Positions 1 through 32,279 of a stretch of DNA of 55,364 nt are shown in pieces. This DNA is from Leptolyngbyaceae cyanobacterium (GTDB lineage: Bacteria; Cyanobacteriota; Cyanobacteriia; Phormidesmidales; Phormidesmidaceae). Below the pieces are notes generated by a model. It had not been told where the DNA came from and ran no database searches. It saw nothing but the letters and a program-made list of their open reading frames with translations. The first letter of the stretch is position 1, and the number at the start of each line of letters is the position of its first letter. The translations under genes were made by a program, and so were the position numbers. The stretch lies in contig CBDHHL010000013.1 in the NCBI GenBank assembly GCA_965263355.1, forward strand, positions 1 through 55,364, given 5' to 3'.

Positions 1-715
1 GTTCTTCGTATTGCTGACGTAGTTCTTCGTATGGACGCTGGAAGTAACCAGGGAATGAGTCTTGGAGGGTTTTGTATAACTCAGTCGTTGGTAATTCCCA
101 TTGGTGACTAATACCAAAATAATGCGAGGCCATGCCCCCACCTTTTACAGACTTCCCTAAGGCTAAATTAATTTGTTTGTTTGAGATATTAGCGGCTGCT
201 TTTTGCCCCTGGAACCATGCTCGCAACGGTTCAAACACAAACCCGCGCAACTCATCACACTTTGCCTGATATCCTGCTGCGCCTTTAGCTGCGTTATCTG
301 CGCCGTAATGTTCACAAAAGATAATTGATTCCGATGCAGGAAAATAGCCTCTAAGAATTTCTTTGCATGATCCTTTATGAAATCCTTGTTCCTTTCGCCA
401 TCGAATATTGTTCAGCACATTAAACCGATCGCTCAACAACACCTCAACTTGTGCTGACATTTTTGTGCTCGCGAAACAATACAAGCTGCCATTAGGTTTT
501 AATATGCGTTGCCATTGCGCGGCTAGCTGGTCAATCCATCTCAAGAATTCTGCTGAATTATCCCAGGCGCGATCCCACCATTCGAATTTACCTTTAGAAC
601 CGCCCCCTTTTACCTTAAAAAAAGGTGGGTCAGTTGCTATTAGATCAATGCTGCTATCAGGGATGCCGTTCATCACTTCCAAGCAATCGCCCTGAATAAC
701 TTGATTTAATTCCAT
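1..715 (-). CDS. DNA methyltransferase, N6A/N4C beta class; 3' end runs off the window
   Basis: Not in the ORF track. Manual translation from ATG 715: MELNQVIQGDCLEVMNGIPDSSIDLIATDPPFF...WQRILKPNGSLYCF; open to position 2. Confidence 0.9.
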   Translation of the reverse strand, partial: MELNQVIQGDCLEVMNGIPDSSIDLIATDPPFFKVKGGGSKGKFEWWDRAWDNSAEFLRWIDQLAAQWQRILKPNGSLYCFASTKMSAQVEVLLSDRFNVLNNIRWRKEQGFHKGSCKEILRGYFPASESIIFCEHYGADNAAKGAAGYQAKCDELRGFVFEPLRAWFQGQKAAANISNKQINLALGKSVKGGGMASHYFGISHQWELPTTELYKTLQDSFPGYFQRPYEELRQQYEE

Positions 716-802
716 AGCAAAACTCAGCACGATCGCACTAGTACATTATCCCCTGAAAGTGCCAGAATAGACCTAAGCTGTCAACTTTGGATATGCCGTG
801 AG
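709..802. repeat. 94-bp direct repeat, copy 1 (MTase upstream region)
   Basis: Matches 1656-1749 with 5 mismatches. Confidence 0.92.
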
Positions 803-809
803 ATTCCGT

Positions 810-1639
810 TCAGCTTGCCAATGCATCCCAGATATCTAGCTGCTCTTTTTCTGCAATAGGTTTCTTGTCGCTAGGCTCTGTTTGCCCCGGTGCCCATACT
901 TCATTAATACGATTTTTAGCGATCTCAAAATAATCAGTATCTAGTTCAATCCCAATAAACTTACGACCTAGTTTTTTGGCCGCGACTCCGGTACTACCAC
1001 TGCCCATAGTAAAGTCTAGGACGGTTTCATTGGGCAGCGTGTAGGTCTTGATCAGATACTCCATCAGGGCGACGGGCTTTTGGGTGGGGTGGAGTCTGCC
1101 CGAAGACGCTCTCTCGTCACCTTTTATTGAGACAATATTTTTAGGGTAGAAAAGCCCTATGTTTATAGTTTTTACGTTGTCTGATTGATCGCCAAAAATA
1201 CTGCTTTTATTGCCCTTGCTGATTGCCGTATAACTTTTTCCTTTCTTCATGCATGGGTAATAATTAGTTTGCCCTTGGCCAAAGACCAAAACGTCTTCAG
1301 TTATTTTCAATGGTTGTTTCTTGGCATTCAAATGACCAGCGAACTTATTTACTTTGTCCCACGTCCAGCAATACTTGAACCACCTCGGATTACTCATCAC
1401 TAAGGCACTGGTAAACGGCTGGGAGCCAAATAAAACTATTGCCCCATTAGGCTTAACTAGTTTCTTTAATCTCATCCACATTTCATCAAACGGGATCACA
1501 CTATCCCATTTGCAAGCGGTCGTGCTCAACCGTAAGGTGGATCTGTAATAATAGCGTCTACAGTTATTTTGTCAGCTATTAGTTGGCCCATTACATCAAG
1601 GCATTCGCCTTGAAATAGTTGAACTAGATCTTCCTTCAC
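810..1639 (-). pseudogene. Second N6A/N4C DNA methyltransferase, split by a 5-nt insert with TGA (pseudogene or recoded gene)
   Basis: RBS AAGGAGGTGA then GTG 1639: MKEDLVQLFQGECLDVMG...AIITDPPYG* (1526-1639); next frame TTACKWDSVIPF...HPTQKPVAL...VLDFTMGSGSTG...FIGIELD to stop at 810. Confidence 0.85.
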
Positions 1640-1655
1640 TAATGATCACCTCCTT

Positions 1656-1749
1656 ATTCCATAGCAAAACTCGGCACGATCGCACTAGTACATTATCCCC
1701 TGAAAATGCCAGAATAGATCTAAGCTGTCAACTTTGGATATACTGTGAG
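1656..1749. repeat. 94-bp direct repeat, copy 2
   Basis: Matches 709-802; retains ATG GAA followed by TAA on the minus strand. Confidence 0.92.
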
Positions 1750-1751
1750 CG

Positions 1752-2162
1752 GTGATGAACGTAACTGATAGCGATGATTATGTAGCTTTGATGATTGCTG
1801 CGGGTTCTCTAGCCTTAGGCGCGATCACAATTGTTGCATCGGCTGTATCTGACAAAATGGGCGCTGCTGAGACGACTGGGGGCTATGCCGTAGCTACAAC
1901 CGGGTTAAGTGGCGCTGCGGGCTTAGCGCAAGGTGGTGGAAAAAAGAAAGATGAAAAAGACATCCCTGATCCTGAGCCTACAGTCCCCACACCTGAACCT
2001 ACGCCACCGACATTCAGCAGCCCAGTAGAACCCGTGAGTATCGATCCCCCTGGTGGTGACACTGACTATGCTCATATGGGATTTCAATTGCCGTCGTCAG
2101 CTGGAGATACGGGCTGTCTTAAGGCGACACTTTACGGAATGGAGGTAAATTTTATCCCTTAA
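1752..2162 (+). CDS. Small membrane protein with Pro-rich tail
   Basis: Hydrophobic N-terminal helix, second Gly/Ala-rich segment, KKK then PEPT repeats. Confidence 0.65.
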   Translation: MMNVTDSDDYVALMIAAGSLALGAITIVASAVSDKMGAAETTGGYAVATTGLSGAAGLAQGGGKKKDEKDIPDPEPTVPTPEPTPPTFSSPVEPVSIDPPGGDTDYAHMGFQLPSSAGDTGCLKATLYGMEVNFIP

Positions 2163-2165
2163 ACG

Positions 2166-2205
2166 ACAAAAACGCTCAAGCTTCTCAGTCTAAGAGCGTT
2201 TTTGT
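2166..2205. terminator. Probable bidirectional intrinsic terminator
   Basis: ACAAAAACGCTC...GAGCGTTTTTGT hairpin between convergent genes. Confidence 0.7.
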
Positions 2206-2246
2206 CAGTGGTGACCATGCCAGACGGCTAGGGGATTTAATGTGCT

Positions 2247-2774
2247 CTAGTCTAGCACATCTAATTTTGTTTGCCATACAAAAGACGGCAGTAGTCCTTG
2301 AGCACCGTTTAAGATTTGCATGGATTCAACCAAAGTTTTGAATGTTTTAAGATAAATATCTGGATTCTTTTCCGAAAGCCGATTACCTGCGATGTTCACC
2401 TTTTCAACATCATTACTACAAATATAATCGGCTAATTCTTCGGCGCTAGGATTTATTAGCAATAATTTTTTTAGATTTTTTGCAGTTCCTATTGTGAGCC
2501 TTCCACCTGGGCTATTTTGACGACCGAACCATACAGTTAAGTCTGTGTCAAAAACATTTGCTTTTGTCCTAGGTGGATATCCAGCCTCAGGATACTCTTT
2601 GAGGCCGAACATTTTAAGTGAGTAATCCGATATATTTTCTCCTGACCAAGTTTGAATCATGTAACCTTTGGCGGCCCATCCACCAGTTTTGAATCCGCAA
2701 TACCTAGCAGCATCTAAACCCGCTCTATCTGCTCCGGTCTGGCCACCAGAATGAAACTTTAATTGTTTGAACAT
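2247..2774 (-). CDS. Circularly permuted YpsA SLOG family (putative molybdenum carrier-like) protein
   Basis: HSGGQTGADRAGLD, YPPRTKANV.DTD.T and VNIAGNR motifs; start taken at MFKQLKF. Confidence 0.85.
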   Translation of the reverse strand: MFKQLKFHSGGQTGADRAGLDAARYCGFKTGGWAAKGYMIQTWSGENISDYSLKMFGLKEYPEAGYPPRTKANVFDTDLTVWFGRQNSPGGRLTIGTAKNLKKLLLINPSAEELADYICSNDVEKVNIAGNRLSEKNPDIYLKTFKTLVESMQILNGAQGLLPSFVWQTKLDVLD

Positions 2775-2811
2775 TTTTTTGTGCTGTGCTAATCCTTTAT
2801 TTTTTAAGTCT

Positions 2812-3174
2812 CTAATAAGAAATACGATCAGGTAAATTAGCATTTAATGGCAATGCAGATTGAGCGTATTGAGGCAGTCGTTTAACCACCCTCCATCCTT
2901 TTGTTTTCAATGAACCTGCTAAATAATATCCTTTCCCAAAAGCCCAGTCTTCTCTGTACTCAACACCTTCTAATCTTAAAAACTTAGTTCTTTCATCTAG
3001 CGATGCAGCTAACCGCATTTCCTTAAACAACCGACGTGAATGATTTGAATACGCAAGCACAAAGCCTTCCTCAACTCGCAAAGAATCAAAATCTTCCATA
3101 GGGTGCCTATCATTGATAATTTTCTGAGCAATGATGACACCATGGGCAGTTTTTCTTGTAGTTACAAACGCCAT
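2812..3174 (-). CDS. Hypothetical protein
   Basis: 120-aa ATG ORF directly upstream of the SLOG gene. Confidence 0.65.
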   Translation of the reverse strand: MAFVTTRKTAHGVIIAQKIINDRHPMEDFDSLRVEEGFVLAYSNHSRRLFKEMRLAASLDERTKFLRLEGVEYREDWAFGKGYYLAGSLKTKGWRVVKRLPQYAQSALPLNANLPDRISY

Positions 3175-3247
3175 TGCTTTTTAACATCTATTGACATCTC
3201 CTAATTTACACGCTACATTTTTGAGTGTCAACACAAATATTGAATTG

Positions 3248-3490
3248 ATGCCAGACGTAAACATAGAGATTACGCTGGAGCTAGCCGAAAAAGTTCTTGA
3301 CGCCTTGCCTGAACTACTTAAAGTAGAAACCCATGGCTTGACTCAAGAAGACTTAGGCTTAAAGCTAGGCTTAACAAAGTCTTCAGCTAGCACTACGATT
3401 TCTAGATACGAAAAAAGTTCATACCATGGTGTTAAACTGTGGAGGCTGAGAGAGGTTGTAAAAGCCCTTTCAGATCTAGTCCAAAAGTAG
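3248..3490 (+). CDS. XRE/Cro-like HTH regulator
   Basis: GLTQEDLGLKLGL...TTISRYEK. Confidence 0.8.
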   Translation: MPDVNIEITLELAEKVLDALPELLKVETHGLTQEDLGLKLGLTKSSASTTISRYEKSSYHGVKLWRLREVVKALSDLVQK

Positions 3491-3598
3491 TCCAGAACAA
3501 AAAACGCTTTCAACAGAAGTATTGAATAACAAGGGTTGTAGCGTAGTTGATTAGTTGCGGTTGCAGCAGCAAGTCAAAGTAATTTAGGAATAAAAACT

Positions 3599-3859
3599 AT
3601 GAGTTTAGGTTTCGGCCTTGATCCAGACATTTGGACAGACGATCTCGATAAGCTAACGGCAAGCGACAGTAAAGGCGTTTTGTATGCTGGCTTTTCCAAA
3701 AGCAATACGCTTTTCTTTTTCATTTCTATGGACCGGTTTGGAGAATTTAATTTGTGCAAGGTGACTCTTGGTAAAGGAAAGTCTGGGAGTTTAACTGCGC
3801 TTAAAACGCTGCCTAAATATTGGACAGAAGCGAAGAATTTAGGCGTTAATTGGAGATAA
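3599..3859 (+). CDS. Hypothetical protein
   Basis: 86-aa ORF with AGGA upstream. Confidence 0.55.
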   Translation: MSLGFGLDPDIWTDDLDKLTASDSKGVLYAGFSKSNTLFFFISMDRFGEFNLCKVTLGKGKSGSLTALKTLPKYWTEAKNLGVNWR

Positions 3860-4014
3860 GGTAGGTTAAATCGCTTGCTGTAACGTCGTACTCATCCCAG
3901 GGGCGATAAACGGGGTTATTGTATCAGTCTTCATTGTCTCGCCTTGGTCTGTCCCTGGCACTGGTGAAGCTGTCCCCTGGTAAACGATCGCTATCATTTC
4001 AACTTCAGTTTCTT

Positions 4015-4398
4015 TTAGCCCAGACAATGGCTCGGATACACAGGGGGCTGTCTTGTGTCAATTAATAGGTCATGCAGGCGAAAAAAGATCCTAGGGTCCG
4101 TTGGCGTTTGCCATAACTTATAGATATCTGGCCCAGACCCTAGCCCTACCTGAATATTTTGAGTTCGATACGCCGTTTGCATAAAGACTTTGAAAATTAT
4201 GCCCGTTGCATTAATGGGATTGTCTAATAAAAGTTCAATATAATTGCTATTCCCATTGGTCGCAGTGCCCGCGATGCGAGCCCCATCATTCGAAACATCA
4301 AAACCCGTCGTCACTAAATCAGTTCTGATCGTATTGGCCAGGGTGCGACCTGTAAATGTGGGATAGAACTGGGTTAGACTTAGGCTTGGTGCGACCAT
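4015..4398 (-). CDS. Hypothetical protein, possibly frameshifted at the 3' end
   Basis: 127-aa ORF; an alternative frame continues to 3866. Confidence 0.55.
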   Translation of the reverse strand: MVAPSLSLTQFYPTFTGRTLANTIRTDLVTTGFDVSNDGARIAGTATNGNSNYIELLLDNPINATGIIFKVFMQTAYRTQNIQVGLGSGPDIYKLWQTPTDPRIFFRLHDLLIDTRQPPVYPSHCLG

Positions 4399-4463
4399 GG
4401 ACTGTTAGGGTGCTGCCCGTATTGTATCAATTAGTCAATACTGTCAGCAAACGACCAAGGATT

Positions 4464-4787
4464 TCAGCTGCGGTCATTTTTGGCAAAAGAAATTACTGAC
4501 TCACGAATGACGCGTGATTTATTCAAAAAAGCTTTTCCTGCATCAGTCAGAGAGTAATATTTACGTCGTGCCCCTTCCCTGCTTTCTGTAGCATCGCCCC
4601 ATTCAGACGAGACAAAACCTCTATTTTCTAAGCGTTTTAATATCGGATATAAAGACCCAACAGGGATTTTGCGTTGGCCTTGCGTTGCTTTGTCGATTGA
4701 TTCAGATATCTCTAACCCATACAAACGCTGATGCTCAATAACAGTCATTAATAATTCTTGCGTGTTCGTCAGGTCTAGCTCTGCCAT
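4464..4787 (-). CDS. PadR-family transcriptional regulator
   Basis: LYGLEI...GSLYPILKRLE..GFVSSEW...RRKYYSLTDAG. Confidence 0.93.
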   Translation of the reverse strand: MAELDLTNTQELLMTVIEHQRLYGLEISESIDKATQGQRKIPVGSLYPILKRLENRGFVSSEWGDATESREGARRKYYSLTDAGKAFLNKSRVIRESVISFAKNDRS

Positions 4788-4849
4788 GGAATAGCCCCAT
4801 AATTACTACCTTACGATTGTAAGGTATTTTGTGGGCAGTCATGCCCAAT

Positions 4850-4926
4850 GTACGGATAAATGACAGGGGGTTGTATTGTGACAAAGGGTGAGGGTATATT
4901 AGAAGAGTAGCAAGCGAGAGAAAAAG
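4850..4926 (+). promoter_or_regulatory. Duplicated sigma70-like promoter/leader, copy 1
   Basis: TTGTAT-18-TATATT; near-identical to 7621-7699. Confidence 0.75.
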
Positions 4927-4929
4927 CAA

Positions 4930-5139
4930 ATGAAAAGCCTTTATGATTTACCCGTCAAAAGCCTAGGCCATAACGAAGATTACCAAAGTCGTCTCGAAGA
5001 TCTGCGTTATCGGGCTAAATTTCCAAATTTGTCTAATTACATGATTGGAGTAAATGATTTAGTCGTTCGGTTTATTTTTGACTCAGACTTACTGTCTAAA
5101 TTAATTGATTTGCATGTCACCAATACCAAAAACGCTTAA
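4930..5139 (+). CDS. Hypothetical protein
   Basis: 69-aa ORF directly after the promoter. Confidence 0.65.
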   Translation: MKSLYDLPVKSLGHNEDYQSRLEDLRYRAKFPNLSNYMIGVNDLVVRFIFDSDLLSKLIDLHVTNTKNA

Positions 5140-5403
5140 CCCACAGTGCCCACACTGTCAGGGAAAGACCCAAAAAAACAAAGTGCTGAAATCAGGCAGA
5201 CAGCAATATAAATGCACCGTCTGCAAGCGCTGCCATACCCCAGGGAAAACCGTAGGTGGTAGGCCCCCAGTCGATGCCCCGTCAGCAGCAACGCTTAGAC
5301 AGCGGAGAAGTAGGGGTTGTAGCTGTTCGGTAATTTCTACCCATACCTAGACAAAACTATCCGATTGTCCACATAATCATTATGTAGTCAGTAGGATAGT
5401 TTT

Positions 5404-6027
5404 ATGACATCTGAAGAAATGCCTATCAGTATTGGTGAAGCAGCCGATCTATTGGGTGTTAGCGTTAAGACTGTTAGGAGATACGCTGATAAAGGTAAAA
5501 TCCCATTTGAACGTGCTCCCAGTGGCCATAGACGCTTCTACCGTTCACAGCTTCAAGCTAAATCTAAAACCTTTGATACTGACCGCGTAACGGTTAACTA
5601 TGGTCGAGTATCAAGCCATGACCAAAAGAAAGACCTAGAACGTCAGGTAACCCGACTAGAAGAGTTCAGCAACTCTCATGGATGGCATTACACCACGATT
5701 CAAGATTTAGGTTCGGGACTCAATTACAAGAAAAAAGGACTAAAGAAGTTAGTCAAAATGATACTCAATGGTGAAGTTGAGCGTCTTGTTATAACCCATA
5801 AGGACAGGCTTCTAAGGTTTGGCGCTGAACTCATATTTATGATGTGTGATGAGTTTAATGTTGAGGTTGTCATAGTCAACAAATCACCTAAAGAACGTGA
5901 TTTTGAATCTGAGCTAGTAGCTGACATGATCGAATTAATTACACTGTTCAGTGCAAAACTTTACGGGTCAAGGTCTCACAAGAATAAAAAGGTAGTTGAG
6001 TCTGTGGTCAAAGCTACCCAAGAATAA
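5404..6027 (+). CDS. tnpA: IS607 transposase (MerR-like HTH + serine recombinase)
   Basis: SIGEAADLLGVSVKTVRRY; YGRVSSHDQKKDLERQ; DLGSGLN; HKDRLLRFG; FSAKLYGSRS. Confidence 0.95.
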   Translation: MTSEEMPISIGEAADLLGVSVKTVRRYADKGKIPFERAPSGHRRFYRSQLQAKSKTFDTDRVTVNYGRVSSHDQKKDLERQVTRLEEFSNSHGWHYTTIQDLGSGLNYKKKGLKKLVKMILNGEVERLVITHKDRLLRFGAELIFMMCDEFNVEVVIVNKSPKERDFESELVADMIELITLFSAKLYGSRSHKNKKVVESVVKATQE

Positions 6028-6097
6028 GCCATTATGCTTATAGACATTTTGGGTAGGTATGGGTATATTTTAATTATGTCGTTTACAGGTCGATACG

Positions 6098-7504
6098 ATG
6101 CCTACACTAACCTATTGCAAAGGTTTACCTACTCCAGCTGATGAGCTAAATGCTATTGGCTTTACTGAGTTTGAAATGTTCCTAACAGCCTATGCACCTA
6201 TATTTCATAAGGCTGTTTGTGAAACTGTTGCTCAGTTGCTATCAGACAGTTTCAATAAATCAAAATGGAATACTCACCTACAACAAACCTATGGCATTTC
6301 TAAACGTCATGCTAACGGAGTGATCTCCAGTGCAAAGGGTAGTGTAGATAGCGCTAAAGAGTGCCGTAAACTTCATGTAAAGCAGCTTGAGGGCAAGCTT
6401 AAATCTACTAAGCAGTGGGTGAAAAAGTCACTTAAACGGATTAAGCGTAAAGACTTTTACCCAGCCTGTAACCTACATACCCGTAGAACTCGATTACAAG
6501 ACTTACGGTTTGCTATCCACCATAAACAACGGCGTATAGCTGTTTTAGAGAGCCAGATTGACAACCTTAAAACTAAGCCTATCCAGGTTACTGTTCCCCG
6601 GTCTCAATGCTTTGTAGTGGGCTCTAAGGATGAAAGCTATGGTAACCAAACAGTTCAGTGGGCTGGTAACACAATTAAATTTCGTGTTCCCTATTGCCTA
6701 GAATCTAAATTTGGTAAACATGTTGAAACTAAGCTAGGTGGGTTTGAGCGCAACATTAACCGGATACCCTCAGATGGTGCTAAGACTTGGCATTTTTACC
6801 GTAAGGATGGCAAGTGGGTAGCAGCTGTTCAGTTCACCCCTAGCGCTGTTAAAAGGGTCTCTAAGCACTCAATGTATGGGTGCATCGGTATTGACCTCAA
6901 CCCAGGCTCTATAGGGTGGGCTTATGCCGATACTGATGGAAACCTAAAAGCTCATGGCCAGATCCCCTTACAAATGGGTTTACCCACAGGTAAACAGGAT
7001 GCTCAGATTGTTGATGCAGTTATGCAACTTGTCACCCTAGCTAAAACTTATAAATGCCCTATCGTTGCTGAGAAATTAGACTTTAGTAATAAGAAAACAT
7101 CACTCAAGGAACAAGGTAAAAAGTATGCTCGGATGCTGTCAGGGTGGGCTTATAGTCGGTTTAATGAGTTGCTAGATAGTATTTGTCAAAACCGTGGTAT
7201 CCGAGTTCTACGAGTAAACCCAGCTTATACCTCAGTTATAGGTCTGGTTAAGTACTCTAAACAATATGGTTTAGCCTCTGATGAGTCAGCAGCGCTAGCA
7301 ATTGCTAGACGTGCTATGAGGCTATCCGAAAGACTCCCAAGCTCCATAAATGCCTATCTAGAGGTGAACTCTGGAAAGCACATCTGGAGCCACTGGTCAC
7401 AACTGAATAAACAACTGAAAACCAAACGAGTAAGGCGACATACCTTTTACTCTATCTCTAACTGGGAATTCCTGGACAAGCGCAGTAAGTTACACAGCTG
7501 CTGA
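6098..7504 (+). CDS. tnpB: TnpB RNA-guided endonuclease-related protein
   Basis: RuvC motifs IGIDLN, IVAEKLDF, VNPAYTS, DESAALAIARR; downstream of IS607 tnpA. Confidence 0.9.
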   Translation: MPTLTYCKGLPTPADELNAIGFTEFEMFLTAYAPIFHKAVCETVAQLLSDSFNKSKWNTHLQQTYGISKRHANGVISSAKGSVDSAKECRKLHVKQLEGKLKSTKQWVKKSLKRIKRKDFYPACNLHTRRTRLQDLRFAIHHKQRRIAVLESQIDNLKTKPIQVTVPRSQCFVVGSKDESYGNQTVQWAGNTIKFRVPYCLESKFGKHVETKLGGFERNINRIPSDGAKTWHFYRKDGKWVAAVQFTPSAVKRVSKHSMYGCIGIDLNPGSIGWAYADTDGNLKAHGQIPLQMGLPTGKQDAQIVDAVMQLVTLAKTYKCPIVAEKLDFSNKKTSLKEQGKKYARMLSGWAYSRFNELLDSICQNRGIRVLRVNPAYTSVIGLVKYSKQYGLASDESAALAIARRAMRLSERLPSSINAYLEVNSGKHIWSHWSQLNKQLKTKRVRRHTFYSISNWEFLDKRSKLHSC

Positions 7505-7620
7505 CGCAAGCGAAAGCACTAGGAGTAGGTTTTCTGAAAATACACCGTGGATTTTCTGGCTAGGTAGATATGGTAATACTTGACCACATTTGTCTAGTTA
7601 TTTAGAAGCGGCAGCAAAAC

Positions 7621-7699
7621 GTACGGATAAATGGCAGGGGGTTGCATCGTGACAAAGGGTGAGGGTATATTAGAAGAGTAGCAAGCGAGAGAGAAAAAG
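7621..7699 (+). promoter_or_regulatory. Duplicated promoter/leader, copy 2
   Basis: TTGCAT-18-TATATT; matches 4850-4926. Confidence 0.75.
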
Positions 7700-7702
7700 A
7701 TT

Positions 7703-7963
7703 ATGTTGACTGGCAACTATTGCATTGACAAAGCCGCTAAAAACGTTCTAGAGGAACAAGTAAAAGCAGCTAGCAAAAAACTTAACGAATATCCAAGAGA
7801 AGCCAATGGGTTAACACCCGCATCTACAAAGGCCATGGTCGGCTGGCAGGAAGCTAAAATCGCTTATGGTAATGCATTTAACTCTCTTCGTAAGTTTAAC
7901 GGGGCATTTTGTAAGCGATATAAAAAAGAAATTCGCGCTGAACGTAAAGTTAAGGCAGCATAA
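7703..7963 (+). CDS. Hypothetical phage protein
   Basis: Basic 86-aa ORF between promoter and terminator. Confidence 0.75.
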   Translation: MLTGNYCIDKAAKNVLEEQVKAASKKLNEYPREANGLTPASTKAMVGWQEAKIAYGNAFNSLRKFNGAFCKRYKKEIRAERKVKAA

Positions 7964-8010
7964 AATAAACCCCCTGTTAGCCAAGCAAATGCTAACAGGG
8001 GGTTTGTTTT
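7963..8010. terminator. Bidirectional intrinsic terminator
   Basis: AAACCCCCTGTTAGC...GCTAACAGGGGGTTT between convergent genes. Confidence 0.85.
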
Positions 8011-9970: not shown

Positions 9971-11137
9971 TTACTGATGCTCAACTAGCTCAATATGAGC
10001 CATATGATCAGGCTGGCTGTCCGCTATCAATTTCGCTTGTTGCTCAATAAAGTCAGCATCAACAGATATGGGGCACGGCTCAATCTTGACATCAAAGTTA
10101 TTTATCAGCGCTTCATAAACCATCGGATTTATGCCCGCCTCAGCATTAATTAGTTCATCCAGCAAGACAAAGCTATCGAGATATTGATTGCCTTGATAGT
10201 GGCTGCCGCAATCGCCCATAGTCTTTATATGGCGATCCCCAGCCATTACATTGCGGACCACTTGAGCGGTCGTGTCTTTTTCTGTATACTCGCCCGCGTC
10301 ACAGGTGCGGGCATTGCTAGCAAATGTGTTGTTCTTTACGGTATTAATTCGGCTGTCATTCCCCTTAACAGTATTCAGGCCAACTCCAGATTTGCCATTA
10401 AACATACTGAGATTGTCTTTAATCAGTAGATTGCCCCGATAGATGCCCGTATCGTTTTGAAAATGAATGCCGTTCCCTTCATCTAAGGCCATGGTTGCGA
10501 AACCCTTAGAGAACACTCGTGAAATTACATTGCATTGGTTTCCAAAAACCAGATTCTCAGAGATTTCATACAACGTTTCCGGCGGCCCTTTTGGCTGGCT
10601 ATTGGCGATACCATGACTGCCAGAGATCGAATACCAGCAATTATGGTAAATTGCGTTACCTTTAATCAGATGAGAGTGTCCATCCTTGTTAGTAATACCC
10701 CCACCGGGGAAATGATGGATTTTACATCCCTGAATTCTGATATTTGAGCAATCGTTTAATGCGATGCCCCGTCCTGTTATTTGGATCGACGCATCTTCCC
10801 ACCATAGAGATAACGCATAATCTAGGTCTAAATCTTGACTGTGGCCTGCAAACTCTATATCAGTGATATAAACGTGATTGGAGTTTTTCATCGCTAAGCC
10901 ATTTGTGTCAGAAAGTATAGTCACTGGACCATCCCCAAACGGCATTATCTTGATTGGTGCTTCGGCTGTTCCTTTTAGCCCACTAGCAAAAAAAGCATTT
11001 CCACGGGTCCGTGTTTCCCATGAAGTGTTGTATTCTTCATGTTGATAAACGCCAGACTTTAGCAGGATACGATCGCTTGCCTCAACAACTTTAAGCGCAC
11101 TTTGAAATTGATCTGATGTCTCGATGATGTATTTCAT
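9971..11137 (-). CDS. Right-handed parallel beta-helix protein (pectate-lyase-like / depolymerase)
   Basis: ILLKSGVY, GTAEAPIKI, repeated IxGNxIYHN / IKDNLS.FNG / VKNNTF. Confidence 0.85.
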   Translation of the reverse strand: MKYIIETSDQFQSALKVVEASDRILLKSGVYQHEEYNTSWETRTRGNAFFASGLKGTAEAPIKIMPFGDGPVTILSDTNGLAMKNSNHVYITDIEFAGHSQDLDLDYALSLWWEDASIQITGRGIALNDCSNIRIQGCKIHHFPGGGITNKDGHSHLIKGNAIYHNCWYSISGSHGIANSQPKGPPETLYEISENLVFGNQCNVISRVFSKGFATMALDEGNGIHFQNDTGIYRGNLLIKDNLSMFNGKSGVGLNTVKGNDSRINTVKNNTFASNARTCDAGEYTEKDTTAQVVRNVMAGDRHIKTMGDCGSHYQGNQYLDSFVLLDELINAEAGINPMVYEALINNFDVKIEPCPISVDADFIEQQAKLIADSQPDHMAHIELVEHQ

Positions 11138-11140
11138 TGA

Positions 11141-11776
11141 TTAATTCCCGAAAAAGCCTGCATTACTTGCATCAAAAGCGAAGATAGGACTTGCCCTGAT
11201 AGACTCCGCAACGGTCTCTTTGTTTGCCATGACCCGGTCGAAGCCAAAGGCTACATATCCAAATGTATCGCCATTTTGAGCCAGTATGGGGCAAGAAATA
11301 GTTAGCTGGATATTATTTGGTTCTAGCTGCTGTCTCAATAGACCCTCTGGGAGATCCTTGGTAGGCTTGACCCAGCATTGACCTAACTTATGATAATCGA
11401 GCTGTTCTAGGTATATATCTTCTTGTTGGATGTCCAGCCATCCGTAAGTTGCCGATACTGGCACTCCGATTCGTGCGATCGCAAAACTAAAGCGCCGACG
11501 CTGGTCCTCGTCGTACAAAAATGACCCTACCCATTGAGCGTTCAAACGATCACCCATAGAAGTTATGACATCTTCGATGCTTTGTTGGTAGATAAGCCCC
11601 CTAGCGATGCCCTGTGCTATAGAACCAGGCGTTTTGATTTGCAAGCAAGCCTCGCTAAACTGAGTATGACTCGTCCAGAAAAGAACTAGGCCAAAAAATA
11701 ACCCAATCGATGCGATTATGAACGCCCGACCCAATTGTGTTCTAAGGAATGGAAACAATGCTCTATCGTTTCGCAT
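11141..11776 (-). CDS. Single-TM + GAF-like protein with T4 holin T-like architecture
   Basis: One TM helix (about aa 18-35) and a GAF-type C-terminus IQLTISCPILAQNGDTFGYVAFGF; 211 aa. Confidence 0.6.
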   Translation of the reverse strand: MRNDRALFPFLRTQLGRAFIIASIGLFFGLVLFWTSHTQFSEACLQIKTPGSIAQGIARGLIYQQSIEDVITSMGDRLNAQWVGSFLYDEDQRRRFSFAIARIGVPVSATYGWLDIQQEDIYLEQLDYHKLGQCWVKPTKDLPEGLLRQQLEPNNIQLTISCPILAQNGDTFGYVAFGFDRVMANKETVAESIRASPIFAFDASNAGFFGN

Positions 11777-12509
11777 TAGGAGTTTTGCTATCTATTGACT
11801 TTTCATTAGCCATGTCTTTAGCCTTTGATACGATACCAACAGCTGCACCGGTTGCATTAACGAGCGCCCCGATTACTAGGATCGTAGCGTCTCTGCCAAA
11901 AGACATCAGTTCCGTTGGCACTCGCCTAAAAATACTTAATAAAAATGGGGTTAGATAGAAAAAAACACCCGCATAGATCAGCCACTTAACGACGAGTTCT
12001 TGTAGCTCAGACTGGCGCAATTGTACTTGCATATCCTTGTTGGACGCTTTCAGTTCTTTATTGGATTTCTCCAATTGCAAGATCAAATCTCGTTCCTGTT
12101 GCTCTTGCTCCTTTATTTGTTCTTCTTGGCGTAAATATTCTGTGCGGTCTCGAACGACTTCGCCTACATAGGTTTCACCTTCGTGATTGACAATAAATAG
12201 TCGTAGCCAGATAGGGATCTGTCGTCCCATTCGTGTTTTGCCAAAAAGCGGAGCTTCAGAACCCATATCACGGGTCCTCTGCCCACGTAGAAACGCATCA
12301 TACATTCTGTCATGAGCGCTTTCTGATATAAGAGATTCAGGAACCAAACTGTAGACTTTCAAGCCAACCATTGCCGTTGGATTTTCGTACTCAAAAAGTC
12401 TAGCCGCTGCTGGGTTAGCAAGGACTATTTTGCGTTGTGAATTCCCAAAGATAACGGGATCAGGATTGAATTCAAATCCAGCTCTTGCTAACGCTGCGTC
12501 AGGCATCAA
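11763..12509 (-). CDS. PAS-domain (FixL-like) coiled-coil membrane protein
   Basis: IVLANPAAARLFEY..MVG..VYSLVP...AHDR...GKTRMGRQIPI.L...VRDRTE; coiled coil; two C-terminal hydrophobic helices; no kinase or cyclase output. Confidence 0.85.
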   Translation of the reverse strand: MMPDAALARAGFEFNPDPVIFGNSQRKIVLANPAAARLFEYENPTAMVGLKVYSLVPESLISESAHDRMYDAFLRGQRTRDMGSEAPLFGKTRMGRQIPIWLRLFIVNHEGETYVGEVVRDRTEYLRQEEQIKEQEQQERDLILQLEKSNKELKASNKDMQVQLRQSELQELVVKWLIYAGVFFYLTPFLLSIFRRVPTELMSFGRDATILVIGALVNATGAAVGIVSKAKDMANEKSIDSKTPNAKR

Positions 12510-24921: not shown

Positions 24922-25617
24922 TCAGGGGGAAATGACGGCATCAACTAATGAGGCTTCCCCGATTATTCCAATCGCTCTAGCTGGATTAAATCGAGTAATT
25001 ACGGTACATCTGCAGTTAGGGCCGCAAGTACAGGCCACCGTAGCAGGCACTACATCATCTATTGCTAACCATTGCCCTCCTGTGTCGTAGGCTGGGCATT
25101 CTGGACAATGAATCACAAACGGGTCTAGCATTCTTAATGCCTCATTGTGGCTAAGGATGCTTTTTTGTGTTAGCCGTTCAGTTCTATGAAACGTCCTGAA
25201 TACTTTTTTGGATTGCAGCTTAAGCCAGCCTCTTATTTGCCCTGGTGTTTTCTGCCCTGCCAGCATTGCTAAAGTGAATGCGGCTAAGGCTGCTGCAATG
25301 CCGGTCAGATCATCTCGAAGCTGTTCAAAATATTGCCGGTTTTGCCGGTTTGCATTTAGCGCGATATGCCCGCCCGCTGCCAATATAAGAATTATGATAT
25401 TAGATTCTTTTATTTCAGCCATTATCAAGCGTTGCCACTCTTCTGTCGTTAGCTCGCCTGATAAATATCGTTCAGTAATAGTTAATAGTCTGCCTTCGAG
25501 CTTTAATCTTTCCCCATTAACAACTAACCTGAGTTCAGCCGTTGATATTCGTCGACCGTCACTAAAGCGATAACGGCCAATAGTTGAGTCAAAATAAACG
25601 CCTTCAAGTTCAATCAA
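24922..25617 (-). CDS. Minor head / MuF-like protein
   Basis: C-terminal HCPEC...CTCGPNCRC; TTG start overlaps the upstream TGA. Confidence 0.75.
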   Translation of the reverse strand: MIELEGVYFDSTIGRYRFSDGRRISTAELRLVVNGERLKLEGRLLTITERYLSGELTTEEWQRLIMAEIKESNIIILILAAGGHIALNANRQNRQYFEQLRDDLTGIAAALAAFTLAMLAGQKTPGQIRGWLKLQSKKVFRTFHRTERLTQKSILSHNEALRMLDPFVIHCPECPAYDTGGQWLAIDDVVPATVACTCGPNCRCTVITRFNPARAIGIIGEASLVDAVISP

Positions 25618-30312: not shown

Positions 30313-31023
30313 ATGGAAATTCAAGATATTGATATTGATCTGCTCATCCCCTACGAAAATAACGCCAAGCTTCACCCAGATTGGCAAGTCAAATCAATTG
30401 CTCGTTCTATTGAACAAACGGGCTTCGATGTGCCGCTGGTCGTTGTCCCTGATGGCGATAAGTTTCTAATCGTTAAAGGCCATGGCAGACGGTTAGCTGG
30501 CCTTATGCTTGGAATGCCCAAACTACCTTGCTATGTGTCGTCACTGTCAGGCGATGTCGCTATAAAAGCCGCTAGATTGCTTGATAACAAAACCCAAGAC
30601 TCAGGCTATGAACTAGAGGCGTTAATCAGTGAGCTAGAGGCAATCTCAGCTATTGATGAAGACATATACACTGGTTACGATGAGCAAGAAATTAGTGATT
30701 TAATTTCACGGTTCAATGATGAAGATTTAGACGAATTAATAGAAGAATCCATCGACAGCGATCGCGAACCTCAACAAAACCCTGAACCCCAGCAAAACCT
30801 CGAACCTCAGCAAAACCTCGAACCCCAGCAAAACCTCGAACCTCAGCAAAACCTCGAGCTTGAGCAAATGCCTCCATTAGGCGATAGCGATAAAGTGCCG
30901 TTAGCGATCGTATTGACTCAGGATGAAATGTTTGAATGGAATCAGGACAAAGAGCGGTTGGGATATGCTACGGATGGGAAGGCATTTAAGGAGATGTGGC
31001 GGCAGTGGAAAGACAATCACTAA
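30313..31023 (+). CDS. ParB/Srx N-terminal domain protein
   Basis: LIPYENNAKLH..QV..IARSI...GF..P.VV....IVKGHGRRLA. Confidence 0.92.
   Translation: MEIQDIDIDLLIPYENNAKLHPDWQVKSIARSIEQTGFDVPLVVVPDGDKFLIVKGHGRRLAGLMLGMPKLPCYVSSLSGDVAIKAARLLDNKTQDSGYELEALISELEAISAIDEDIYTGYDEQEISDLISRFNDEDLDELIEESIDSDREPQQNPEPQQNLEPQQNLEPQQNLEPQQNLELEQMPPLGDSDKVPLAIVLTQDEMFEWNQDKERLGYATDGKAFKEMWRQWKDNH
30766..30855 (+). repeat. 18-bp coding tandem repeat x5 (EPQQNL/P)
   Basis: GAACCYCARCAAAACCYY units. Confidence 0.9.
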
Positions 31024-32279
31024 CCACATACTATGGAGGCTTTTTACTAAATGCCCCATGTCCACTAGAGCTAAGCCTGAATGTGTGCAGTCACCATTGC
31101 CCATTCTGCTTTGCCAACCTGAATAAACCCGATCGCACCGCTAACACTAGCCAGATATTCGGCCTACTCAAAAATGCTTTTTCCCCTGGCAAACTAACCC
31201 TAGAAAAACATTTACTGCGGTCTGGATACCCGATCCAATTTAGTAATCACATAGACCCGTTTGCAGGCAATAACTACGAGCTAAGCCTACGAATCTTAGA
31301 GACACTATCAGAATTAGATGTCCCCTGTTCCCTTCAAACTAAAGGGGGCCATGGCCTGCTCAAAAAGCCAAACAAATATCACTGTTCAGCATTAGACCTA
31401 ATCAAGCCGACAGTGTTCTATGTGAGCTTAGAGACGCTAGACGATGATATTGGCAAGAAAGTATCTGCCCCTGGTGCGCCTAGGCCATCGTTACGGCTAG
31501 AGATGATTGAAACACTAATCGCTCATGGCCATCGTGTTTGTGTTGGCGTTAATCCAGTCGTGCCTCAATGGTTGCCTGATCCTGAATTGATGGTCACAAC
31601 ATTGCATCGCATCGGTGTTGAGGGCATGTGGATTCAGCCCTTGCACTTAAGCCACAAGCAAATTTCAAAAATGTCTGTAGCTGACAAAAAGCGGTTGGGG
31701 GATGAGATCCTTGATATGGCGCTACCAAGGAATCATAAAAATTATCCTGCGATCGCTGAGACGTTATCAGCCCTTAGAACTAAAGCCGACGAGATTGGAT
31801 TGGCTGTTTACGATAATCAGCAGCCGCAACGAACAGAGTACTTTAAGCCTTATATAGAAACTTATCCCACTCGATATCCAATGATGCAGGAGTTCGTCAA
31901 TTGGTGCCATGATTCCCATGAACCTGGCGATCTTATTTATTTTGAGGCTTGGTTAGACCTGATGCTGCCTAGCCTTCCTAAGGGTGTATGGCCGATTGGG
32001 CAACATATTGGTGCGGTGGCTGGCCCTGGATTTTGGTCTAAGACTCGCGACTTGGGAATTACTAATCAAATGACGTATCAAGAATTGTTAGGCTTAATAT
32101 GGGATTGGTTAGATTCTGTCCTGTGCCCTGCTAATGTTGGCTGCTTCCAGTGGGCTGGCGATTATGAACGGCAGTCTGACGGGACTGTAGGCTGGTCTCG
32201 TTGGACGGATAAAGACGGGCATCCTATATTAGTGTTTAATCCTGAGGCAAACGGATTATGGAGCCAGCAATATCTATAA
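30996..32279 (+). CDS. Radical SAM protein
   Basis: CSHHCPFCFA (CxxxCxxC), DPF, LQTKG, APRPSLRL. Confidence 0.9.
   Translation: MAAVERQSLTTYYGGFLLNAPCPLELSLNVCSHHCPFCFANLNKPDRTANTSQIFGLLKNAFSPGKLTLEKHLLRSGYPIQFSNHIDPFAGNNYELSLRILETLSELDVPCSLQTKGGHGLLKKPNKYHCSALDLIKPTVFYVSLETLDDDIGKKVSAPGAPRPSLRLEMIETLIAHGHRVCVGVNPVVPQWLPDPELMVTTLHRIGVEGMWIQPLHLSHKQISKMSVADKKRLGDEILDMALPRNHKNYPAIAETLSALRTKADEIGLAVYDNQQPQRTEYFKPYIETYPTRYPMMQEFVNWCHDSHEPGDLIYFEAWLDLMLPSLPKGVWPIGQHIGAVAGPGFWSKTRDLGITNQMTYQELLGLIWDWLDSVLCPANVGCFQWAGDYERQSDGTVGWSRWTDKDGHPILVFNPEANGLWSQQYL

Follow-up and report, generated by a model that had tools for sequence, protein, structure and literature searches.

How might a full-length enzyme be made from a methyltransferase gene that is interrupted by a stop codon directly after its catalytic motif? 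The question is raised by a 55,364-nucleotide (nt) stretch of DNA from a Leptolyngbyaceae cyanobacterium (contig CBDHHL010000013.1), referred to here as the window. On its minus strand, the DPPYG motif of a DNA methyltransferase is encoded by GAT (1543-1541), CCA, CCT, TAC (1534-1532) and GGT (1531-1529), and TGA follows (1528-1526). Two bases later the gene resumes with ACG (1523-1521) and the residues TACKWD; five extra bases in total separate the N-terminal part (N-part) from the C-terminal part (C-part). The original prediction, made from the letters alone, had described the UGA, the five extra nucleotides after DPPYG and two otherwise intact halves. All of this is confirmed: the downstream frame is open to 810 and its PF01555 match lies above the cut-off. 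In the translation, DPPY stands ahead of the S-adenosylmethionine (SAM)-binding motif, identifying a beta-class N6/N4 DNA methyltransferase. The comparisons described below suggest that the gap formed by the extra bases is probably crossed by a short programmed ribosomal bypass with peptidyl-tRNA-Gly.

Recurrence and anatomy of the gap

When viral contigs were scanned for insertions of 1-30 bases separating DPPYG from TACKWD, 62 loci were obtained. In 56 of them a stop codon directly follows the Gly codon, and none carries a 1- or 2-nt indel. The other six have in-frame sense insertions of one or two residues (L087, L089, L090, L097, L112 and L130); three of these six represent one sequence, and several resemble 6-nt gaps with the stop turned into a sense codon. 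The same scan shifted two codons downstream gave no loci. A wider pattern scan, with Trp-codon matches counted as intact, gave at least 121 loci, and a scan of GTDB genomes gave 19 loci in metagenome-assembled genomes from several phyla, 16 of them gap genes and three not. At least 186 matches were reduced to 107 non-redundant genes (<95% identity), including the window, which are the basis of all counts out of 107; L201 and L275 were dropped from the set, no resumption having been found in them.

The gaps are 4-14 nt long and fall into all three frames (40, 35 and 32 genes, the 40 being in frame). Nine gap genes belong to a second methylase subfamily, which continues with L/Y-x-F-M-G-K. Intact alleles are commoner; by the strict pattern, a gap gene is found at 2/80 of the loci nearest to the C-part of the window. 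The TG-AGY gap of the window has counterparts of identical type in L192, L224, L283 and L284, and a metagenome scan for this type found two loci, neither of them a close relative. Among cultured phages, Geobacillus phage PK3.6 (OP341627, gp63/gp64) carries a 7-nt gap with a pairing arm (see below) at the start codon and, as in the window, no HNH gene. Phage GEP101 was rejected as a gap carrier, its split sitting elsewhere in the gene. The original prediction had asked whether homologs carry a stop or insert at the same DPPYG position, and would have been undermined by an insert unique to this sequence. With 107 genes and none at the shifted control site, the break clearly recurs, which rules out a sequencing error or one-off decay. 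Contigs from three sequencing runs (one study, possibly of the source sample) give depth across the 1475-1608 bin, a per-bin count that does not establish a single contig spanning the break site, and no indel is listed at 1526-1530.

The gap genes share one plan, in which a Gly codon is followed by a stop, a G-poor spacer and then, almost always, GGN or xGY (N, any base; x, a base other than G; Y, a pyrimidine). The proposed take-off codon is GGT or GGC in 98/107 gap genes, compared with 36/85 and 42/119 intact genes. The stop is TGA in 53 genes, TAG in 35 and TAA in 19. The last three gap bases, which the search pattern left unspecified, are GGN in 77 genes (L212 counted as GGT) and xGY in 29. 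When only gaps of at least 6 nt are considered (n=82), 70 end in GGN and 10 in xGY. Gap interiors contain 3% G and, across 235 interior bases, 80% A+T. Where the first landing base is not G, the take-off codon is always GGY and the third landing base is always C or T, with 29 xGY and no xGR (R, a purine), these 29 genes being not independent but spread over roughly ten places on the C-part tree as judged by eye. GG landings have a pyrimidine at the third base in 36 genes and a purine in 40 (n=76). The restriction to xGY is predicted by re-pairing of tRNA-Gly(GCC) at two of three positions; excision of the extra bases and re-initiation do not predict it.

Both parts of the gap genes are under purifying selection, as the check on both halves proposed in the original prediction now shows. 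The ratio of nonsynonymous to synonymous substitution rates (dN/dS) in 27 disjoint pairs of gap genes is 0.16-0.17 for the N-part, 0.08-0.13 for the first 15 codons after landing and 0.09 for the next 21, close to the values of 0.11-0.17, 0.04-0.10 and 0.09 over the same segments in 23 intact pairs. The C-part values may partly predate the insertion. The N-part values cannot, because the N-part travels with the cassette described below. All 85 C-parts with enough flanking sequence are open for at least 185 amino acids (aa). Decay is unlikely for the family, in line with what the original prediction had proposed.

Long-range duplex and local hairpin

The gap genes have in common a predicted long-range duplex, in which an arm ~100 nt upstream pairs with the DPPYG codons and closes about 85 nt. 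When the DPPYG codons are paired with the preceding 115 nt, the best duplex reaches -20 kcal/mol or lower in 68/102 gap genes and in 0/84 and 1/119 intact genes. A gene's own arm beats swapped targets in 99/102 gap genes versus 45/84 intact genes. In a fixed register, with genes picked by protein spacing, 6 of 7 core pairs are kept in 60/81 gap genes and 2/69 intact genes. In an alignment of 53 genes, which were chosen by hand from the 81, mostly for sharing the register, 92% of cells pair, compensatory changes occur at 6/13 pairs (77 cells vs 25 when shuffled), and one pair occurs in all four Watson-Crick forms.

A Shine-Dalgarno (SD)-like motif precedes the arm. Pairing with the anti-SD at -6 kcal/mol or lower is seen in 71/91 relatives, compared with 38, 10 and 32 of 91 in shifted control windows, and the longer the gap, the further the duplex reaches into the take-off codon (rho 0.52); both results exclude six off-register loci and duplexes weaker than -12 kcal/mol, the window among them. 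In one clade (L098, L105, L151, L188 and L278) the duplex reaches across the stop and the gap as far as the landing codon, and the SD lies on the opposite side. Many gap genes have an N-terminal extension, whose conserved V-G is accounted for by the RNA arm; the window has none.

In the window, the predicted duplex has the same placement as in the family. It closes the minimum-energy fold of 1529-1641 (z -2.82; 1/200 shuffles), and most of its pairs have probabilities of 0.7-1.0. In a predicted extension of it, gap bases pair with the SD region (P about 0.6-0.7).

The original prediction had instead pointed to a local hairpin created by the insert. This hairpin is real in the window. Alone, it has a folding energy of -6.1 kcal/mol (z -3.9), and in a 31-nt context the energy is -7.2 kcal/mol with the five bases vs -2.2 kcal/mol without them; in a 71-nt context it is ordinary (z -0.63). 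It is not conserved in the family. A local hairpin of -4 kcal/mol or lower is found in 12/98 gap genes and, over a comparable length, in 11/119 intact genes; when inserts are swapped between genes, the native insert comes out ahead in only 45 cases vs 36. We therefore rejected a local take-off hairpin as the stimulator.

Origin of the gap and competing explanations

The gap genes are often accompanied by a nuclease gene. An HNH-like gene lies within 1.2 kb upstream at 46/83 gap loci vs 0/76 intact loci; detection used a profile derived from 38 of the HNH-like proteins themselves, and matches to Pfam HNH families were also seen. At 18/35 HNH loci with enough flank, a stranded old methylase N-terminus precedes the HNH gene and ends at or near D-P/L-P. 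In 14 pairs of loci, N-part and gap are 95-100% identical and the downstream sequence only 76-94%, with the differences beginning 2-15 nt past the landing triplet in 13; the reverse pattern, with the downstream sequence alike and N-part and gap diverged, was found in no pair. Mapped onto a tree of 156 C-parts, presence of the gap requires 24 changes, at least nine of them forced by well-supported branches, and the C-part of the window is placed beside an intact gene. Three records of cultured phages with the HNH gene represent two phages, VnaP and H101. Vibrio phage VnaP (ON212104; L285, 1595-2539) has a stranded methylase N-terminus and an intact HNH gene and has lost the downstream methylase; H101 has no gap gene after its HNH gene.

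As the sequence comparison shows, the DPPY codons of phage methyltransferase genes are the point of entry for an HNH cassette, which leaves the old N-terminus stranded upstream and brings a replacement. This new N-terminus ends in Gly codon, stop and spacer and contains an arm predicted to pair with its own D-P-P-Y-G codons ~100 nt on. The gap is best explained as the 3' end of this homing-endonuclease cassette, and the insert likely destroys the nuclease target without changing the protein. The N-part of the window aligns with the N-parts of gap genes such as L105, L113, L136 and L278, several of which adjoin an HNH gene, suggesting that it is a replacement N-terminus delivered by the cassette. 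The window itself is best explained as a derivative in which the HNH gene is absent, the duplex is weakened and the gap (GGT to AGC, +5) persists.

In the proposed bypass, the stop would stall the ribosome while its P site holds peptidyl-tRNA-Gly. The arm would zip onto the codons leaving the ribosome and push it forward, and 4-14 nt on the tRNA would re-pair with the first GGN or xGY, a match at two of the three bases being enough. The product would be one full-length enzyme, probably at low to moderate yield. Pairing of the exiting mRNA is a plausible driver here by analogy. Support for the hop comes from the recurrence with variable gap length, the constrained landing triplet, the HNH cassette and the long-range duplex. 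Of the three possibilities raised in the original prediction (a 5-nt hop, coupled re-initiation and an off switch), the hop is now the leading explanation, although the hairpin that had been offered in its support fails. The elements may form a widespread, compact, portable module, in which an SD-like motif and a zipping arm drive a 4-14-nt hop over a stop in any frame, with an imperfect landing match, in hosts from several phyla, with no take-off hairpin and perhaps no nascent-peptide signal; we consider the chances of this evenly balanced.

Several observations weigh against the bypass. The scans demanded W-D downstream, and conservation of W-D is thus built in. Take-off and landing triplets belong to the same wobble class in only 35/107 genes, with two of three bases matching in 71 more, and the GGT/AGC pair of the window is mismatched; all gene 60 relatives use one tRNA for take-off and landing. 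In part, the GGN at the landing site may simply be the Gly codon that the host gene had ancestrally. The window lacks an HNH gene, and its duplex (-11.4 kcal/mol) is close to the intact average (-10.5 kcal/mol), 65% of swapped targets are better, and 60 and 118 of 1000 synonymous shuffles match it. For the family, the sense strand is only mildly favoured over the antisense strand (65 to 35). The duplex overlaps the take-off codon, far closer than the pushing stems of T4, and could instead hide the start. Two refinements were rejected: SD spacing does not compensate for gap length (rho 0.015, 64 genes), as an SD-to-landing ruler through the closed stem would require, and, as a general feature, a duplex extended across the gap hardly exceeds the control (55 to 37).

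Alternatively, translation could terminate at the stop and the C-part be made by re-initiation (in the window, at the overlapping TTG), the 37-aa peptide and the C-part assembling into a two-chain enzyme; the closed duplex would possibly bring the upstream SD near. The TTGA stop/start overlap that had suggested this is real, both at the broken gene and at 25614-25617 (minus), where a 51-aa open reading frame (ORF) ends on the TTG of a 231-aa ORF and a similar use is suggested. Split enzymes after nuclease insertion have been described for MobA and MobE, and the GenBank annotation of PK3.6 shows two overlapping ORFs. However, ATG, GTG or TTG occurs in frame at or before the landing triplet in only 26/107 genes, none of them with a linear SD at -5 kcal/mol or better. 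Three genes have an in-frame stop just before the landing, close relatives sharing a 4-nt gap vary between ATG and ACG, and the landing constraint is left unexplained. Re-initiation is thus possible in the window through the TTG overlap, is not the general mechanism, and is on balance an unlikely account.

It is quite improbable that no single mechanism operates and that each gene relies on leaky +1/-1 frameshifting or stop readthrough, adding one to four residues after DPPY. The loop tolerates extra residues, as the six sense insertions among the 62 loci indicate, and the in-frame gaps could be read through. Against this, three different events would be needed for one cassette whose gap drifts from 4 to 14 nt, some gaps contain a second stop in the resumed frame, and there would be no reason for the GGN/xGY end or the G-free interiors.

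Similarly improbable is that the family is recoded and the window copy is silenced or decaying, with the HNH gene lost, a weak duplex burying SD and start, and a neighbouring methyltransferase doing the work. The weakness of the window duplex and the predicted SD-gap pairing are consistent with this, as are the second methyltransferase gene that follows and a contig that skips the unit (see below). However, the C-part is open over its whole length, and gap pairs without the HNH gene still have a dN/dS of 0.07-0.10 (4 pairs). Among the variants listed for the broken gene in the three runs, 10/10 in the C-part are synonymous and the N-part has one I-to-V change; the whole stretch has 75 further entries, and some variants may derive from paralogs.

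Excision of the extra bases from mRNA (or DNA) by a hypothetical duplex-guided enzyme, followed by ordinary translation, is very improbable: the duplex ends at the gap, covering it fully in one clade, and removal after the first G would restore a Gly codon in nearly all cases, but xGA/xGG ends would then be acceptable and are seen in 0/29, no deletion allele is listed in the DNA contigs, and 4-14 nt is too short for self-splicing. Separate transcription of the C-part from a promoter inside the gene (one site resembling the consensus, at 1575-1548, vs 2.8 expected by chance) and a DNA inversion between inverted copies, after which, we reason, the stop would remain, were also rejected.

Gene neighbourhood and known systems

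The window resembles a cyanobacterial tailed phage, with matches to a major head protein and a terminase. It contains 20 copies of GCGATCGC vs 0.6 expected, a motif that we take to be HIP1, linked to cyanobacteria. Anti-restriction is an established role of phage orphan methylase genes, and the enzyme encoded in the window most likely serves a cyanobacterial phage in this way, as an orphan methylase. Features of the broken gene are listed in Table 1. The two copies of a 94-nt direct repeat flank a 947-bp unit containing the broken gene, and directly after this unit lies the second methyltransferase gene (PF01555 match), which is open and continues past the window start. One contig fuses 798 to 1747 and skips the methylase unit (30-nt side; possibly an artefact of the repeat). 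At the end of the upstream repeat copy lies a mini-ORF, ATG-GAA-TAA (1662-1654, minus). It agrees with the beginning of the second methyltransferase gene and shares bases with the SD that precedes the broken gene.

Table 1. Positions of the broken methyltransferase gene, its proposed signals and the flanking repeats in the window
Feature	Position	Strand	Remarks
SD-like motif AAGGAGGT	1648..1655	minus	8 nt before GTG start, immediately 5' of pairing arm; strong SD
Methyltransferase N-part, 37 aa	1526..1639	minus	GTG start, ends DPPYG + TGA; phrog_67, E 5e-9
Duplex 5' arm	1626..1639	minus	Predicted; includes start codon
Duplex 3' side, D-P-P-Y codons	1532..1544	minus	Predicted
Local hairpin of the original prediction	1517..1532	minus	Competes with extension of long duplex
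Gly codon GGT, proposed take-off	1529..1531	minus	
TGA stop directly after take-off	1526..1528	minus	Overlaps in-frame TTG 1529-1527
AGC, proposed landing triplet (+5)	1524..1526	minus	Would pair tRNA-Gly(GCC) at positions 2 and 3
Methyltransferase C-part, 237 aa from TTACKWD	810..1523	minus	With SAM-binding motif; PF01555 102.9 bits, cut-off 26.7
94-nt direct repeat, copy 1	709..802		Precedes second methyltransferase gene
94-nt direct repeat, copy 2	1656..1749		Precedes broken methyltransferase gene; copies 95% identical

Elsewhere in the window, a serine recombinase with a MerR-type helix-turn-helix and a TnpB-like gene (Pfam) lie at 5404-7504, presumably an IS607-type pair by their architecture. 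They are flanked by 79-nt direct repeats (4847-4925 and 7618-7696, 94% identical), resembling the repeat-bounded methylase unit. A PAS-domain protein (11763-12509) and a beta-helix protein (9971-11137), both on the minus strand, are encoded amid phage structural genes, and a tandem QQNLEP repeat protein followed by a radical SAM gene (30313-32279) adjoins the terminase module. Rfam gave no match in window positions 1-8000 at E 1, the plasmid collection gave no match, and no RNA data set containing the sequence was listed.

The more than 100 natural variants in gap length, landing triplet and duplex strength constitute a ready mutational series. The series bears on the drive by exiting mRNA (10.1101/2024.12.09.627546) and on the minimal codon-anticodon match for landing, and one carrier of the gap, PK3.6, is a cultured phage whose thermophilic host is harmless. 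Gene callers split such genes in two, and phage methyltransferases are consequently miscounted as fragments. If the proposed module is real, homing endonucleases would have evolved, independently, a second means of keeping their insertion hidden from the protein, and the list of known natural bypass cases would become several times longer.

Our literature search, which covered few subscription journals and only the main texts of bioRxiv papers, did not find the methylase break described. The main text of the MobA preprint does not mention methylation, and the passage found in the PK3.6 paper lists methyltransferases and does not mention the break. Natural bypassing has been documented for T4 gene 60 and its relatives, a Streptomyces phage terminase and some yeast mitochondria (PMC10732093).

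Among the beta-class N6/N4 methyltransferases (PF01555, phrog_67; DpnA-like 5hek, CcrM 6pbd, MboIIA 1g60), the window gene has the usual DPPY near the N-terminus and SAM-binding motif near the C-terminus. Unlike them, it is broken right after DPPYG, and it scores below the NCBIfam cut-offs for CcrM and other named families.

Synthetic stop hops include a Gly-stop-Gly construct in which 9 nt give one residue, the same as the 6-nt class here (10/107), but they are low-level and unstimulated, and the available text of that review knows of no natural in-frame stop hop (PMC5009743). The terminase bypass of Streptomyces phage phiHau3 has short gaps (7-10 nt), a proposed 5' stem-loop with a flanking Shine-Dalgarno sequence and a junction in a conserved protein stretch. 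Its trigger, however, is the rare sense codon UUA, found in 3 of 100 genes, whereas a true stop is used here in more than 100 genes, and no nuclease cassette is described in the accessible part of that report (PMC10732093).

The closest parallel is T4 gene 60/MobA. There too, an HNH cassette sits in a conserved gene; it contributes an extension of the N-terminus together with a homologous replacement reaching as far as the landing codon (bioRxiv 10.1101/2022.08.31.505936, 10.1101/2024.12.09.627546). Both systems have a Gly take-off, a stop directly 3' and an AU-rich gap, and the MobA nuclease is often lost with the gap retained, as in the window. In the gene 60 model, pairing of the exiting mRNA drives the ribosome forward (10.1101/2024.12.09.627546). 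The published layout of MobA is similar, and its gap protects against re-cutting; the gap described here may protect the methylase allele in the same way. The differences are also substantial. The host is a DNA methyltransferase gene (PF01555) rather than a gene for a large topoisomerase subunit, and the gap is 4-14 nt compared with 20-50 nt. The landing is often mismatched (72/107), and the same-tRNA rule does not hold. There is no conserved take-off hairpin, the stimulator would be one long-range duplex, and in place of a mini-SD 5-7 nt ahead of the landing codon there is the SD-like motif 5' of the arm. The old N-terminus gives way to a new one and is not kept as a second subunit. The gap family would thus work like gene 60/MobA, but several defining features of that system fail here, so it is not a member of it.
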